The notes below the pieces were generated by a model, which worked only from the letters and a program-made list of their open reading frames with translations, was not told the DNA's origin and did no database searches. Below, piece after piece: positions 15,935-35,733 of a stretch of 42,036 nt of DNA (position 1 is its first letter; each line of letters opens with the position of its first letter). The DNA is taken from assembly GCA_038878295.1 (NCBI GenBank), contig JAVZVY010000003.1:1-42036 (forward strand). Reading direction: 5' to 3'. The stretch is from Candidatus Micrarchaeaceae archaeon (GTDB lineage: Archaea > Micrarchaeota > Micrarchaeia > Micrarchaeales > CABMGC01). Both the position numbers and the translations under genes were made by a program.

Positions 15935-16821
15935 CTACAAAGGCTTTCCTATCAGGATTATGCCAAGCACGATAAGGCCCCGCCAACAAGTTCTATTGGA
16001 TAGTAACTACCTATTATTACGCTCCCAAAAAGAACCAAGACCGTGTCTGCGTATTCGAAGTTGTTTATAAAATTGCGCGTTATTACTGTCCTGCCTATTC
16101 CACGCGTCTTGGTGAGTTTCATTGCTCGTAGCTCGAATACTGAGGCAAAAGAGAAAGTGAAGCCGCCGAAGAGGCCAAGCCCGAAGTATGCATAGTTGAG
16201 GCTTGCACCGCCAATATAAAACGTGACAAACAACGCTATTGGCAGAAATATGACAGGTTGCAGAACGAGCTTGCTTCCTATACTGTACTTCTTAATTTTG
16301 TAGAATTGAGTATAATAGCCTGCACCTGCTATAATAGATATGCCGAATACGAATGGAAGTGTTCCGATCTGAAAGCTAAATCCCTTGCTTTCGGCAAAGA
16401 AAACGCCGATTACTACGAACAGCACGCCGATAGCAAGGAGAGCGACTTGACGCGGCCTAAGCGACTTTCTATAGCGTGCGAAGTCTATCAGGAAAAAGAC
16501 CAGAGACGAGAGCCCTATTAATGGATATATGCTCGCTAGGGTATATCTTGTGTAGCCGAATAGCAGCAGCATAGTATAGCTTACTATCATCACTGCAGAG
16601 AATGCACCAAGATAGTACCTTTTGGCGTCCTTAAGCCTGAATCTCAGCTTAAATGCGTAACCAGCTGCAATAATGCCCAATGTTATGCCGATAGCTATGG
16701 AAAGCATGGCAAGCCCGAGCTGCATGTTCTTTACTACGAGATAGTCTATGGTGCCATTTATCGCGTATAGCACTGTGCTTGCAATCATGAATGCGTATGT
16801 TTTTCTGAGCATATAGGGCAT
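15935..16821 (-). CDS. EamA/DMT-like membrane protein with an apparent 1-nt frameshift near its 3' end
   Basis: Multi-pass TM ORF 15958..16821. The shifted frame continues LIVLGIILIGKPL* and completes the typical EamA terminal helix. Confidence 0.65.
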
Positions 16822-18347: not shown

Positions 18348-18811
18348 CGTTACACCAGAGATATTAGCCAGCTCATGTTTTTAATGTTTGCTAGACCTAC
18401 ATTCCAGTAAACAATCAAGAAGAATCAACGGTTACTACCTAATTCTTCGGAGATTGCAGCAAGGTCGCATGACGTGCAACAGTTTTACATGTATAGCATA
18501 TATCAGTCTACACTAGATGTCCGAAAGTAAATAAGTTTAGCTGTATTTGCCCCAATTTATAATTACGGTTTTAGTGAACTACCCTGCCATTGCCTAGCGG
18601 ATAATGTGGGTGTGCAAACAACGTGGCCGTGTTGCTATCAGAACACTATTTCTATGATTCAGAAATTGACCACCGCTACCAGTCAGGATACTTTTAGGAT
18701 GGCGCTTCTCAATCTCAGATTCAGCGAATTTCTTAGCTCTCTGGTGTCGAGACTGGCAGATATCACAGAATTTAGCTTCTTTGAGACAATAGTTGCTTAT
18801 TTTGCACCGTG

Positions 18812-19591
18812 CTATTCTTTTATCTTGTTTTTACTCTTTTTTGTTTCTTCTTTTCTTAACGCTCCAGAAAGATACGCTTCTGCAACCGTATCCTGCAGCA
18901 ACCTGACATTTCCATTTCTGAGCCTTTCATAAGCCGTCGTAAGCCTCTTAAGTTCTTCATCACCAACCTCTGTTATTTTTCTGCTTTGGTTGCTTATGGT
19001 GTATATATCTATGGGTTCTGCCAAAAATGTCGGCGACAACCGCATAGTATCCTTTATGGCTTTTAGCACTACAAGTTTTCCTTCTTTCATAGTAAGGTCA
19101 ACATCCTCATACTCCTTAAGTGCGGCATATGCTAAATCATTTTCAGCCAACACAACGAATTTTTCTTCGGCGTGCCTGCCTCTTAGATAGTGGTCAGCAA
19201 CCCAGATGGCATTCTTGCCATTGCTATCTACGTAAGCCAATATTATCTCTATTGAAATGTCTTCTTTTACAGCGTCAATGCTCTGTATGCCGCTACTGCT
19301 TCTAAGTTCAACGTCTTTTTTAATTATGTCTGCAATGCCTGAAAGAAACTGTTCAAACATGCTTTCGCTTATTTCGGGTGCGTCTCCAAAGACATCATCT
19401 GCAAGCTTCTTGATCTTTTGATTTATCCATACGGTTCCGGCCAGAGCCAGAATATACTTATCTGCAGGGTAGATCTTCTTTAGATATACGGATACGTAAC
19501 TGGATGGATCAGCATCTGACCTTAGGCTCATGCCTGTATCGGAAGCCACAACTATTCCATCAACGCACTTCAGTGCTATGACCAATGACGT
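18812..19591 (-). CDS. proteasome-beta-like Ntn hydrolase (predicted Ser1; proposed ACG start)
   Basis: SLVIALKCVDGIVVASD aligns with the T1...D17 pattern, followed by KKI and ALAG. The ORF track starts at TTG 19585. Confidence 0.75.
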   Translation of the reverse strand, partial: TSLVIALKCVDGIVVASDTGMSLRSDADPSSYVSVYLKKIYPADKYILALAGTVWINQKIKKLADDVFGDAPEISESMFEQFLSGIADIIKKDVELRSSSGIQSIDAVKEDISIEIILAYVDSNGKNAIWVADHYLRGRHAEEKFVVLAENDLAYAALKEYEDVDLTMKEGKLVVLKAIKDTMRLSPTFLAEPIDIYTISNQSRKITEVGDEELKRLTTAYERLRNGNVRLLQDTVAEAYLSGALRKEETKKSKNKIKE

Positions 19592-19616
19592 ACAACCACT
19601 TGGATAAGTCTATACT

Positions 19617-20387
19617 TTATATTTTTGTCATCTTCTTTTCTGCGGCATCGGTGCTGCCTCTTAGATGCCGCAGCATGTCACTTATTAATTGCTGCTCCAT
19701 CCTGTTTATATCTTTATAAGTGCTCTCAAACTCTGCGATTTTGATGTCGTTAACCTTTTCTATGCCTTTGCTGCTCATCGTATAGATGCTTATCGGTTCG
19801 AGCAACTCAGATCCTGAAATAGACATCGTGTCTTTTATTACCTTATAAGCGATAAAGCTGCCTTCCTCGATTCCTAATTCTTCATTTTTATATTTCTCGA
19901 GCTGCAAGTTAGCCGCGCTTTCTCCTACGCCAATTCCGACGGCTCCTAATCTGTTTTCGCTATTAATTACTGTTGGAAGCATGTCGTTTGATATTATAAC
20001 CGCTGTCGCTCCATTTCTTTCATCGAAGCTTGCAAGTAAAAGTGTTGCATCAAGCTCTATTTTGGTAGCATCTTCTTCTGGGTCTTCGCCCCTCGCCATT
20101 CTGGCTCTTTTTATGTATCCCTCCTTGCGTTCAGCAAAATCTTCCAGAAATTTAGCTTTTATATCTTCAAATTTCTTGTTTTTGTTTAATTCTGTTTTGA
20201 GAAGCTCTCTAGCTTCCTCTATAAGGCTGTAGTCTCCAACACCAGAGAACAAGAATCTGCCATTTATAACCCTGATTTTCTCTCCACGTCGCAATATGGC
20301 TGTATTTTCCGTATACGCAGTATCAAATCCGCTATCTGCAGCTACTACAATTCCATCGTTGCATGGAATGTATATCAATAATGTTAT
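19617..20387 (-). CDS. proteasome-beta-like Ntn hydrolase (predicted Thr1; proposed ATA start)
   Basis: TLLIYIPCNDGIVVAAD (T1...D17), EKI, SGVG and GIGVG; paralogous to its neighbour (IKDTM...L.EPI.IYT.S). Confidence 0.78.
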   Translation of the reverse strand: MTLLIYIPCNDGIVVAADSGFDTAYTENTAILRRGEKIRVINGRFLFSGVGDYSLIEEARELLKTELNKNKKFEDIKAKFLEDFAERKEGYIKRARMARGEDPEEDATKIELDATLLLASFDERNGATAVIISNDMLPTVINSENRLGAVGIGVGESAANLQLEKYKNEELGIEEGSFIAYKVIKDTMSISGSELLEPISIYTMSSKGIEKVNDIKIAEFESTYKDINRMEQQLISDMLRHLRGSTDAAEKKMTKI

Positions 20388-20544
20388 TTTACCGCCTATT
20401 GTTTTTTGCTGAAAAATAAATATAAATATGTCGCACAAACACCAGTACTTTACAACAAATACACATATTTGCTAGAGAGAAAGTCAGAGCGCCAAACCGC
20501 GGTGAAGATAGGCATTTACCCGTGCTTTAACTTAAGTCAAACTG

Positions 20545-20619
20545 CGGGCCCGGTGGGATTTGAACCCACGACTTAAAGGTTAAAAGCCTTCCACTCTGGC
20601 CAAACTGAGTTACGGGCCC
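20545..20619 (-). tRNA. tRNA-Lys(TTT), intronless
   Basis: GGGCCCG/CGGGCCC acceptor stem, GAAGG-CTTTTAA-CCTTT anticodon arm and GTTCAAATC T-loop. Confidence 0.95.
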
Positions 20620-20698
20620 TTTGCATATTGATAATTAGTATTGTGTGAAATATTTATATCTGATTTGGTTTATACTGATTCTTGGTTTTAGTGAAAGC

Positions 20699-21238
20699 AT
20701 GAGCAAGCATAATGCACATGCGCACACGCATGGCTATTTTAGCGCGGAGCCAGACGAATCTACAAAGAATCTGCTGGCACAGAATCTTGAAAAAGGCGCC
20801 GTAATTGTAGATTATGGATGTGGAATTGGCAGATATTGCGGTGTGCTTAGTGAATATGCAAAGAGACTGTATTGTGTAGACGTTAATGAAGAAGCCCTAC
20901 AACTTGTAAAAGCAAGGTTTGAAGACGCAATCACAATAAGTAGTACTGAAAGCATAGAAGGCAATAGCGTTGACACAGTACTTCTTGCGAATTCTTTTCA
21001 TGATTTTGAAGATAAAGAATTCGCGGTATCGGAGATTTTGCGAATCTTAAAATATGGAGGCAAAGTGATAGTAATAGATTGGAAAAAGGCAGACTCTGAC
21101 AAAAGTGTAGCGCTGTTTGGCCCACCGATGCGAATTAGGATGAGCAAAGAGGACTATAAGAATTACTTCAAAAAATTTAGACTTATAAATGCGTTAGACA
21201 TCAACGAGACGCATTATGGACTAATCTTCAGCAAGTAG
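20699..21238 (+). CDS. class I SAM-dependent methyltransferase
   Basis: VDYGCGIG motif I, VDVN, NSFHD, RILK.GGK and IDW...GPP. Start at ATG 20699 (AGTG + 5 nt). Confidence 0.85.
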   Translation: MSKHNAHAHTHGYFSAEPDESTKNLLAQNLEKGAVIVDYGCGIGRYCGVLSEYAKRLYCVDVNEEALQLVKARFEDAITISSTESIEGNSVDTVLLANSFHDFEDKEFAVSEILRILKYGGKVIVIDWKKADSDKSVALFGPPMRIRMSKEDYKNYFKKFRLINALDINETHYGLIFSK

Positions 21239-35364: not shown

Positions 35365-35628
35365 GCAGCAGTAAGGCGGGAAGCTAGGGGTTTCCCACAA
35401 CGCAAATCCCCTTCATGGCGTGCCGCATGCTGGCATTGTGACATGCATGCATGCAAAACATACGCAGAGGCGTTGAGATTCTGCCTTTGGTGATGGGCTT
35501 GCATATGAACCAGGCCAGGCCGGAAGGAGCAACCTTAAGTGTGCAAGGCTATGCTCTAAAGATACAGGATTGAGCTGATGCGGATGCCTCTTGCGTGCCT
35601 TGCATGCTGCTGCGCCAGCTTCTGCTGC
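35365..35628 (+). ncRNA. ffs: signal recognition particle (7S) RNA
   Basis: Helix 8 signature CCAGGCCGGAAGGAGCA, terminal pairing GCAGCAG/CTGCTGC and a long helix 5-like pairing; sits just upstream of tRNA-Ser. Confidence 0.85.
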
Positions 35629-35632
35629 GCGT

Positions 35633-35733
35633 GCCGGGATCGCCTAGTGGTAAAGAAATTCACTAAAGGGCGGCAGCCTGCTAAGCTGTTTGGCTAGAAA
35701 TGGCCTCCGTGGGTTCGATTCCCACTCCCGGCG
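35633..35733 (+). tRNA. tRNA-Ser(GCT) with a 15-nt D-loop intron (about position 20/21)
   Basis: GCCGGGA/TCCCGGC acceptor stem, GCAGC-CTGCTAA-GCTGT anticodon arm, long variable arm and GTTCGATTC. BHB intron at 35652-35666. Confidence 0.9.

Follow-up and report, generated by a model that had tools for sequence, protein, structure and literature searches.

Two tandem proteasome-like genes in a Micrarchaeota genome

The DNA analysed here is contig JAVZVY010000003.1, positions 1–42,036, of assembly GCA_038878295.1 from a Candidatus Micrarchaeaceae archaeon; this whole stretch of 42,036 nucleotides is referred to below as the window. On its minus strand, two adjacent genes encode divergent homologues of proteasome subunits, and these genes, their ancestry and the particle that their products might form are the subject of this study. 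The upstream one is called A here and the downstream one B.

19617–20387, minus strand: gene A, Thr1-type proteasome-like subunit, 255 aa from Thr1 (codon 20384–20382), stop codon 19619–19617
18812–19591, minus strand: gene B, Ser1-type paralogue of A, 258 aa from Ser1 (codon 19588–19586)

Called from TTG starts, the two co-oriented open reading frames (ORFs) span 18812–19585 (257 aa) and 19617–20438 (273 aa). The limits listed above make biological sense, although they begin at ACG (B) and ATA (A), and they leave two co-oriented paralogues 25 bp apart, as an initial annotation made from the letters alone had proposed. The shared motifs quoted in that annotation, C.DGIVVA.D.G and IKDTM...L.EPI.IYT.S, are present in both proteins, which BLASTP aligns with 68 identities over 270 positions (25%, E 6e-14). 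Both proteins pass the Pfam model PF00227 (Proteasome), with 28.4 bits for A and 27.5 bits for B at a cut-off of 22.4, as do 18 of 21 family members. Their scores for the archaeal beta-subunit equivalog TIGR03634 (A 23.9, B 19.6 bits) fall far under its cut-off of 224, and the alpha-subunit equivalog TIGR03633 gave 12.9 bits against a cut-off of 287. No protein of the window matched the HslV models, which were weakly matched by 4 of the 21 family members.

Active sites and predicted fold of A and B

Residues were numbered from Thr1 or Ser1, and a 53-row alignment in which the PsmB of this genome served as the reference was used to compare them. In the window, A has Thr1, Asp17, Lys36 (in GEKI), Gly50 and, at the position of the GSG loop, G152-V153-G154 inside GIGVGES, and B has Ser1, Asp17, Lys38 and Gly51, with A148-E149-N150 replacing G-x-G. 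The annotated contrast between a Thr1/Asp17/Lys (EKI) protein with GIGVG and a Ser1/Asp17/Lys protein with a degenerate GSG region was thus borne out, and it extends to the orthologues. All six A rows keep Thr1, Asp17, the Lys33 and Gly47 equivalents and the first Gly of G-x-G. All eight B rows likewise carry Ser1, Asp17, Lys and Gly, and none of them has the first Gly of G-x-G (Ala or Ser stands there); the loop is retained in all family clades other than B. Across the family the Lys33 and Gly47 equivalents are invariant (35/35 rows), and the Asp166/Ser169 pair of canonical beta subunits is kept nowhere. By the standard of its family, therefore, A is a fully equipped subunit, and B has the nucleophile without the G-x-G loop.

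Structure models, beginning at Thr1 for A and at Ser1 for B, were each made with AlphaFold2 from a family alignment of 35 rows and reached a mean pLDDT (predicted local distance difference test) of 92.0 for A and 92.9 for B. Both show a strand-rich N-terminal nucleophile (Ntn) core whose first element is strand S1. Helices H1 and H2 follow at residues 52–68 and 72–97 in A and 53–67 and 75–98 in B, the insertion after H2 is modest (10–15 residues), and a single long helix of about 40–48 residues closes each model (A 213–253, B 210–257), in agreement with the helical C-terminal extension noted initially for each paralogue. Foldseek returned at least 500 matches in the PDB at E ≤ 0.001, the best 40 of which were all proteasome subunits (E about 1e-12). 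With VIA-align, an aligner independent of Foldseek, A scored Z 20.0 against the proteasome beta subunit (root-mean-square deviation (rmsd) 2.4, 177 residues aligned) and Z 19.8 against Anbu 5loy (rmsd 2.8, 211 aligned, model residues 1–241). For B the beta subunit gave Z 20.8, and the top row was Anbu 5loy (Z 21.8, rmsd 2.9, 210 aligned, model residues 1–239). Lower scores were obtained for HslV (Z 17.8 with either model), BPH (A 14.3–15.6, B 15.0–16.8) and connectase, the weakest proteasome-family match (A 12.1, B 12.7–13.0, 141–144 aligned). At the level of sequence, the best 60 of 355 matches of the family profile to PDB sequences were all proteasome subunits, led by archaeal beta subunits (E 1e-16). 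The Ntn fold anticipated by the initial annotation is therefore predicted with confidence (Z 20–22 to beta subunits and Anbu), and the modelled proteins are proteasome-like in fold and Anbu-like in architecture.

A short basic tail of the E-K-S-K-N-K type ends both paralogues and most of their orthologues, and might be a docking motif. The DNA encoding the two tails in the window (18812–18860 and 19617–19645) is 80% identical over 20 nt.

Co-inheritance, phylogeny and selection

The phylum surveyed was the Micrarchaeota (now Microcaldota), a DPANN group, with 401 genomes. Six of them hold an A-clade or B-clade gene (G000, which is the window's genome, and G195, G201, G344, G349 and G378), and in 6/6 both genes are present as immediate neighbours, A invariably preceding B at a distance of 8–25 nt; A of G378 is cut by a contig end. 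A lone A- or B-clade gene was seen in none of the genomes examined. Adjacent locus tags in three metagenome-assembled genomes at NCBI agree with this arrangement.

A careful IQ-TREE analysis of 62 rows, from which the PsmA row was left out, separated the family from PsmB with full support (100/100; ultrafast bootstrap/SH-aLRT). Within the family, the A clade (100/100) and the B clade (100/99) are sisters (97/84), and together they group with a single metagenomic sequence, P0009 (97/96). Quick trees concur, and the branching within A is largely mirrored by that within B. From the sister clades, the constant adjacency and the mirrored subtrees we conclude that the pair goes back to one duplication inside the family and that its two members have been inherited together since. 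The profile and tree comparison that the initial annotation had proposed thus places both proteins outside canonical PsmB, at equivalog scores of 23.9 and 19.6 bits against 224.

Rates of substitution indicate that both genes are under purifying selection in the relatives. The ratio of nonsynonymous to synonymous substitution rates (dN/dS) for the least diverged orthologues was 0.13 for A (G195–G344, dS 1.22) and 0.19 for B (G195–G378, dS 0.92), far below the value near 1 that had been considered for unexpressed genes. For the window's own genes, seven of nine pairs are saturated and gave no dS estimate, and the other two have dS about 2.5–2.6; most other orthologue pairs also gave no estimate, and those that did have dS >2.

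N-termini and start codons

Neither a Gly|Thr propeptide junction nor an alpha-type N-terminal helix is present in A or B, in the sequences or in the models, as had been noted initially: the junctions read Ile/Met-Thr and Thr/Met-Ser, and the models open with S1. Among single-copy relatives with a visible N-terminus, Thr1 is directly preceded by ATG, GTG or TTG in 12/12 cases, and the same holds for Ser1 in five of the six B genes. The following features of the window bear on how the two nucleophiles would come to stand at the N-terminus.

20385–20387, minus strand: ATA, putative near-cognate start of A; the same position has ATG in G195, ATA in G344 and G201, and ATT in G349
20391–20396, minus strand: GGCGGT, Shine–Dalgarno-like, 3 nt upstream of the ATA; orthologues have GGTGG or GGTGA there
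20411–20430, minus strand: TATA-like AT-rich stretch TTTATATTTATTTTT, about 25–40 nt upstream of the ATA, read from the sequence; putative promoter of an A–B operon
19583–19591, minus strand: start region of B, with ACG (19591–19589), TCA for Ser1 (19588–19586) and TTG (19585–19583)
19596–19600, minus strand: AGTGG, weak Shine–Dalgarno-like, 4 nt before the ACG; compare AGTGG-gttat-ATG in the closest B orthologue (G349)

In the A genes, the codon before Thr1 is ATG only in G195; it is ATA in the window and in G344 and G201, and ATT in G349, so that four of five A genes have a non-ATG codon there. The orthologues that share this state are only 40–57% identical. A motif of the GGTGG, GGTGA or GGCGG type stands 3–4 nt ahead of each of these pre-Thr1 codons; over the whole window, 10 of 40 crude ORF starts have a motif of the GGTG type upstream, compared with 9.7% in random 16-mers. 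Other starts are scarce. In G344 and G201, no ATG, GTG or TTG occurs between Thr1 and the in-frame stop that precedes it, G349 has a GTG three codons upstream, and the window's sole upstream candidate, a TTG 17 codons up (20438), borders the TATA-like DNA on its 5′ side. Among orthologues, the seven codons that follow the A start change synonymously or conservatively and are therefore translated. A reassignment of ATA to methionine was ruled out: ATA codons inside A and B align with Ile or Val in orthologues, so the genetic code is standard. We infer that A is initiated at a near-cognate AUA or AUU codon, and parsimony on the tree suggests that this start is an ancestral, maintained state. Because ATA or ATT stands where the start codon would be, gene callers begin the A proteins downstream and delete the catalytic Thr; the gene calls P0001, P0003, P0004 and P0005 all lack Thr1.

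The ACG before Ser1 is found only in the window's B; the five other B genes carry ATG, GTG or TTG at this place. The site is covered by contigs from the runs X1, X2 and X3, with no difference at the codon. In the window, B would thus be translated either by weak initiation at the ACG or from the TTG two codons on, with loss of Ser1.

The pair is additional to a canonical proteasome

In this genome (752 kb in 43 contigs, 95% complete), canonical proteasome genes were found on contig C6, at 177 bits, and on contig C16, at 157.7 bits. Because canonical alpha and beta genes exist there, the A/B pair is extra, and its description as non-housekeeping holds. A family profile searched over the 401 genomes matched at E ≤ 1e-20 in 37. 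Twenty genomes with a match of at least 94 bits, together with a long-branch member in G390, make about 21/401 genomes with a family member; these include the six with the pair and 15 with single-gene relatives. Among the lower matches, ten were read at the N-terminus and proved to be canonical PsmB of the 'TTTVG' type, nine with a Gly|Thr and one with a Ser|Thr junction (the second copy of G313); seven further matches in the same score range stand outside this reading. Over the PsmB-type rows of the phylum, G|TTT is found in 10/11 and S|TTT in one. One single-copy genome, with its tree row, its start codon and its partner-gene locus (see below), is supplied by the unpublished genome G256. The accessory nature of the pair is further seen in its absence from a genome of the same genus, G110.

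Wider searches also showed the family to be rare. The B query found 19 proteins among 1.84 billion cluster representatives at E ≤ 0.001, and a word-indexed search with A found five. A 21-member profile collected 56 proteins at E ≤ 1e-5, mostly unnamed or labelled '20S proteasome alpha/beta subunit', and the family contains a bacterial clade that includes a Nocardioides protein. A scan of genome contigs found one locus, alignments of the A and B clades found no relatives in metagenome contigs, and a protein atlas yielded only bacterial clusters resembling PF00227, which we treat as leads only.

In a member of the window genome's family, G313, two canonical PsmB-type genes lie in tandem (locus L040 on G313:C11, ORFs near locus positions 1366 and 2150), one with a Gly|Thr and the other with a Ser|Thr junction.

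Genomic neighbourhood

Two features define the surroundings of the pair.

20544–20619, minus strand: tRNA-Lys(UUU), 156 nt upstream of A; it borders the variable segment and lies outside the system
18393–20543, strand not applicable: variable segment of 2,151 nt comprising a 464-nt spacer, B and A, delimited by blastn synteny; it abuts the 3′ end of the tRNA-Lys

In G110 (94% complete), this segment is absent at the syntenic place, where lysyl-tRNA synthetase (LysRS) and tRNA-Lys are separated by 76 nt rather than 2,151 nt, and a phylum-wide profile search found no family member in that genome. The pair thus behaves as a presence/absence segment, which would reflect either insertion in this lineage or deletion in G110. 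The proposed tRNA-adjacent island fared unevenly: the segment is variable and does abut tRNA-Lys, but an integrase, an att-like repeat and a compositional break are all absent (GC content 0.40–0.43 against about 0.45 around). A search for a tRNA-derived repeat gave no near-matching 16-mer, compared with 0–5 in 20 shuffles.

On one side the window neighbours are LysRS, a membrane protein and the ribosomal proteins S13, S4 and S11; the other side has tRNA-Lys and the genes of a methyltransferase and a VKOR-family protein. The pair adjoins the gene of the signal recognition particle (SRP) protein SRP54 and that of a DRG-type GTPase in four related genomes, with no adjacent tRNA in G195, and in G201 it lies near tRNA-Asn/Lys and S13/S4/S11. 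No AAA ATPase is encoded near the pair, as had been noted, and the genome's seven matches to AAA domains all fall on other contigs. PADLOC gave no match for the six proteins tested, and no relatives of A or B were found in the viral contigs scanned.

Relation to known proteasome homologues

Beyond HslV, Anbu, BPH and connectase, we know of no experimental characterisation of a proteasome homologue.

A catalogue by Fuchs, Alva and Lupas (2021; PMC8665760) describes 22 new subfamilies of such homologues. Its main text lists WPH (widespread) in archaea and in bacteria including Actinobacteria (also Proteobacteria/PVC), ACC (archaeal, with coiled coil; 17 sequences) in archaea only, and PHI with a helical insertion after H1/H2. 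An Anbu-like C-terminal helix H5 is predicted there for WPH, ACC and some PHI, none of which has a propeptide; the propeptide is absent from all homologues except the proteasome beta subunit and HslV, and the catalogued homologues are said to have no informative gene context or co-occurrence and no AAA+ partner. The A/B family resembles WPH and ACC as they are described in that text: it combines the lack of a propeptide with a Thr1/Ser1-Asp17-Lys33-Gly47 core, a long C-terminal helix, a sparse distribution and no AAA+ partner. Its taxonomic range, Micrarchaeota plus the bacterial clade with Nocardioides, fits WPH, and the Micrarchaeal branch alone fits ACC. Unlike PHI, A and B have an insertion of only 10–15 residues after H1/H2. 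Compared by description, the family most probably belongs to the WPH/ACC group, and the 'candidate new system' of the initial annotation is, in its broader family, already represented in the catalogue. What the catalogue's main text does not contain is the tandem Thr1/Ser1 pair with G-x-G lost in one member; neither 'operon' nor 'paralog' appears in that text, and the supplements might mention pairs. In a full-text search the subfamily names were otherwise found only in three papers that cite the catalogue; passages of one of these add nothing on proteins of the A/B type. By title and abstract, none of the 14 papers found on Micrarchaeota and the proteasome concerns these genes.

Among characterised relatives, Anbu is the closest in architecture. 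Its structures (5loy/5lox) are the best or tied-best match of A and B and the only one to cover the C-terminal helix, and Anbu also lacks a propeptide, its Thr1 being exposed, as reported in the text of PMC5666114, by removal of the start methionine. Unlike A and B, which form an archaeal pair, Anbu is bacterial and encoded by a single gene; the best 60 of the 355 PDB profile matches are all proteasome subunits, and Anbu may lie lower. The Anbu operon frequently contains transglutaminase, ATP-grasp and Alpha-E proteins, according to the same text, whereas A and B have LysRS, tRNA-Lys, a methyltransferase, VKOR and ribosomal proteins around them.

With archaeal PsmA and PsmB, A and B share the fold and the catalytic core (Z about 20; profile E 1e-16), and the division into a fully equipped A and a degenerate B recalls that between PsmB and PsmA, except that B, unlike PsmA, retains its nucleophile. 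The canonical subunits differ in the Gly|Thr propeptide of PsmB and the N-terminal helix of PsmA, and in being about 200–240 aa long and lacking the extended helix at the C-terminus; A and B, whose equivalog scores are a tenth of the cut-offs, form a separate clade and coexist with real PsmA and PsmB. HslV shares the compact Thr1 Ntn core (Z 17.8 with both) but is bacterial, about 175 aa long, without a C-terminal helix, and works with HslU. Connectase (the MJ0548 family) is, like A and B, an archaeal proteasome-related Ntn protein with an N-terminal Thr/Ser nucleophile, but by its description in the main text of PMC8665760 it lacks H1/H2 and has a two-helix S3/S4 insertion. In the models of A and B, H1/H2 are present and the insertion is missing, and connectase scores Z 12–13 against 20–22 for beta subunits and Anbu; a connectase-like version of the ligase role suggested initially is not supported.

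A proposed two-subunit peptidase and its alternatives

A and B are real, conserved, accessory proteasome homologues of a catalogued but experimentally untouched kind; two features appear to be new, a tandem pair of differentiated Thr1 and Ser1 paralogues that are inherited together and a near-cognate start conserved ahead of the catalytic Thr. With somewhat more confidence than doubt, we suggest that the two-gene operon encodes a propeptide-free hetero-oligomeric peptidase whose main active site is in A. Because A and B are co-inherited as a differentiated Thr1/Ser1 pair, a hetero-oligomer of one fully equipped and one degenerate subunit would be the most economical reading of the sequences. 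A and B would be made without a propeptide, and a methionine aminopeptidase would remove the initiator methionine, as in Anbu, exposing Thr1 in A or Ser1 in B; the genome has two M24-family peptidase genes. The nucleophile would work with Asp17, the Lys33 equivalent and an oxyanion hole at the Gly47 equivalent, and the long C-terminal helix would be positioned like H5 of Anbu. A/B dimers could associate laterally into a ring or an open ring, in which A, with full triad and G-x-G, would provide the main peptidase site and B, which keeps Ser1 and has lost G-x-G, would be a weakened or a regulatory/structural subunit. Such a complex would work with no ATPase dedicated to it and would have peptides or unfolded proteins as substrates, and the weak ATA/ATT start of A next to the canonical starts of most B genes could make B the more abundant chain.

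Several points weigh against this proposal. To our knowledge, no member of the A/B family has a demonstrated activity, and even for Anbu peptidase activity has proved difficult to demonstrate. The nucleophiles of the window depend on the non-canonical ATA and ACG starts; if translation began at the next TTG instead, Thr1 and Ser1 would not be made. B may be fully catalytic rather than modulatory, given its whole triad and invariant Ser1. No fused A–B protein was found among longer proteins, although this is weak evidence. A crude heptad test gave no support for a canonical coiled coil in either C-terminal helix (258 of 2,000 shuffles scored as well for A and 1,355 of 2,000 for B). Finally, the single-copy relatives pair with an unrelated protein of 236 aa, not with a paralogue, so that partnership varies within the family.

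In one alternative, A and B are independent homo-oligomeric enzymes, A a peptidase and B performing another chemistry such as transpeptidation or ligation, linked only by co-regulation. B keeps its triad and Gly in every row and is as conserved as A (mean column identity 65% in both clade alignments, A4 and A5), the 15 genomes with single-gene relatives make homo-oligomers the ancestral state, and the wider family spans proteases and a ligase according to the main text of PMC8665760. Set against this are the adjacency of A and B in 6/6 genomes with largely mirrored subtrees, the absence from B of a loop that all other family clades retain, and the missing hallmarks of connectase (H1/H2 present, no S3/S4 insertion, Z 12.1–13.0); we consider two separate enzymes unlikely, although far from negligible. 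Decay of the pair in this genome is less probable still. In that case the ACG of B and the ATA of A would leave the nucleophile N-termini unmade, with loss under way as in G110, a genome of the same genus that lost the pair or never had it. The ACG is unique among the six B genes, and the TTG two codons after it could replace the start and delete Ser1. However, the frames are open over 255–258 codons with all family-invariant residues present, ATA or ATT before Thr1 is a conserved state of A (4/5) and no lesion of this genome, and the contigs from three runs agree at the ACG.

A role as cargo of a mobile or defence island at tRNA-Lys, acting against viruses or against the host cell of this DPANN-type archaeon, as suggested initially, seems very improbable. 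The abutting segment missing from G110 and the patchy distribution (pairs in 6/401 genomes) would fit such cargo, but the six proteins gave no PADLOC family and the viral contigs no relative, an integrase, a tRNA-derived direct repeat and a shift in GC content are all lacking, and in the other five genomes the pair sits in housekeeping contexts (SRP54, DRG-type GTPase, ribosomal proteins). Two other nearby genes are also present in the window only, relative to G110, and small indels are common here. Last, that A and B are merely diverged canonical alpha and beta subunits of this genome can be regarded as refuted: although archaeal beta subunits are their best sequence matches of solved structure, the canonical genes lie elsewhere in the genome, the equivalog scores are a small fraction of the cut-off, neither the propeptide nor the alpha N-terminal helix is present, and the family splits from PsmB at 100/100.

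A bolder reading, which we put forward tentatively and regard as a possibility with the balance against it, is that Micrarchaeota independently re-invented a two-subunit proteasome-like particle: duplication of an Anbu-like homologue without a propeptide would have yielded an obligate A/B hetero-oligomer, with a full Thr1 site in one subunit and a stripped-down Ser1 partner, replaying the alpha/beta split on a small scale, and the conserved AUA/AUU start immediately ahead of the catalytic Thr would set the output of A. The conserved Thr1/Ser1 pair offers a concrete, testable hypothesis of a heteromeric complex with differentiated sites. Were it correct, the pair would be a natural example of a homomeric proteasome ancestor splitting into catalytic and non- or semi-catalytic subunits. 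Independently of this, the ATA/ATT kept before a catalytic Thr would stand out among archaea as an unusual instance in which non-canonical initiation is conserved.

Further observations

The partner of the single-copy Met-Thr1 homologues is an adjacent conserved protein of about 236 aa with a PCPGCKHD motif, for example at L008:2220–2930 (G106). By tblastn it was found at 11 loci, which are 10 distinct places (L008 equals L016), with 35–56% identity apart from identical copies; the further loci are L025, L027, L019, L020, L021, L018, L022, L024 (in G256) and L023. It has no Pfam or PADLOC match and is absent from all A/B-pair loci. That it might be a hidden proteasome paralogue was ruled out by hhalign (probability 0.2).

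Next to the pair, a stop-to-stop frame of 78 codons (18594–18830, minus strand) lies in the 464-nt spacer that separates B from LysRS and overlaps with the end of B. The frame has a cysteine pattern, C-x6-C ... C-x2-C, and no ATG, GTG or TTG that would give at least 30 aa, and it may be nothing. The region shows several single-gene indels relative to G110: also absent from the syntenic G110 contig are a 287-aa membrane protein with no Pfam match (15958–16821) and a class I methyltransferase (20645–21238).

In G201, the gene after B (L005:9757–10731, plus strand) encodes 324 aa corresponding to the catalytic core of a class II (D/K/N) aminoacyl-tRNA synthetase, with no anticodon-binding domain. 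Its identity as the orthologue of the window's LysRS, which would amount to shared synteny, was ruled out at 24% identity. Elsewhere in the window, Rfam places an SRP RNA at 35366–35733 (plus strand), with the bacterial large SRP as best model (78.9 bits). Immediately after it comes a tRNA match of 101 nt, which is missing from the ARAGORN results and may contain an intron.

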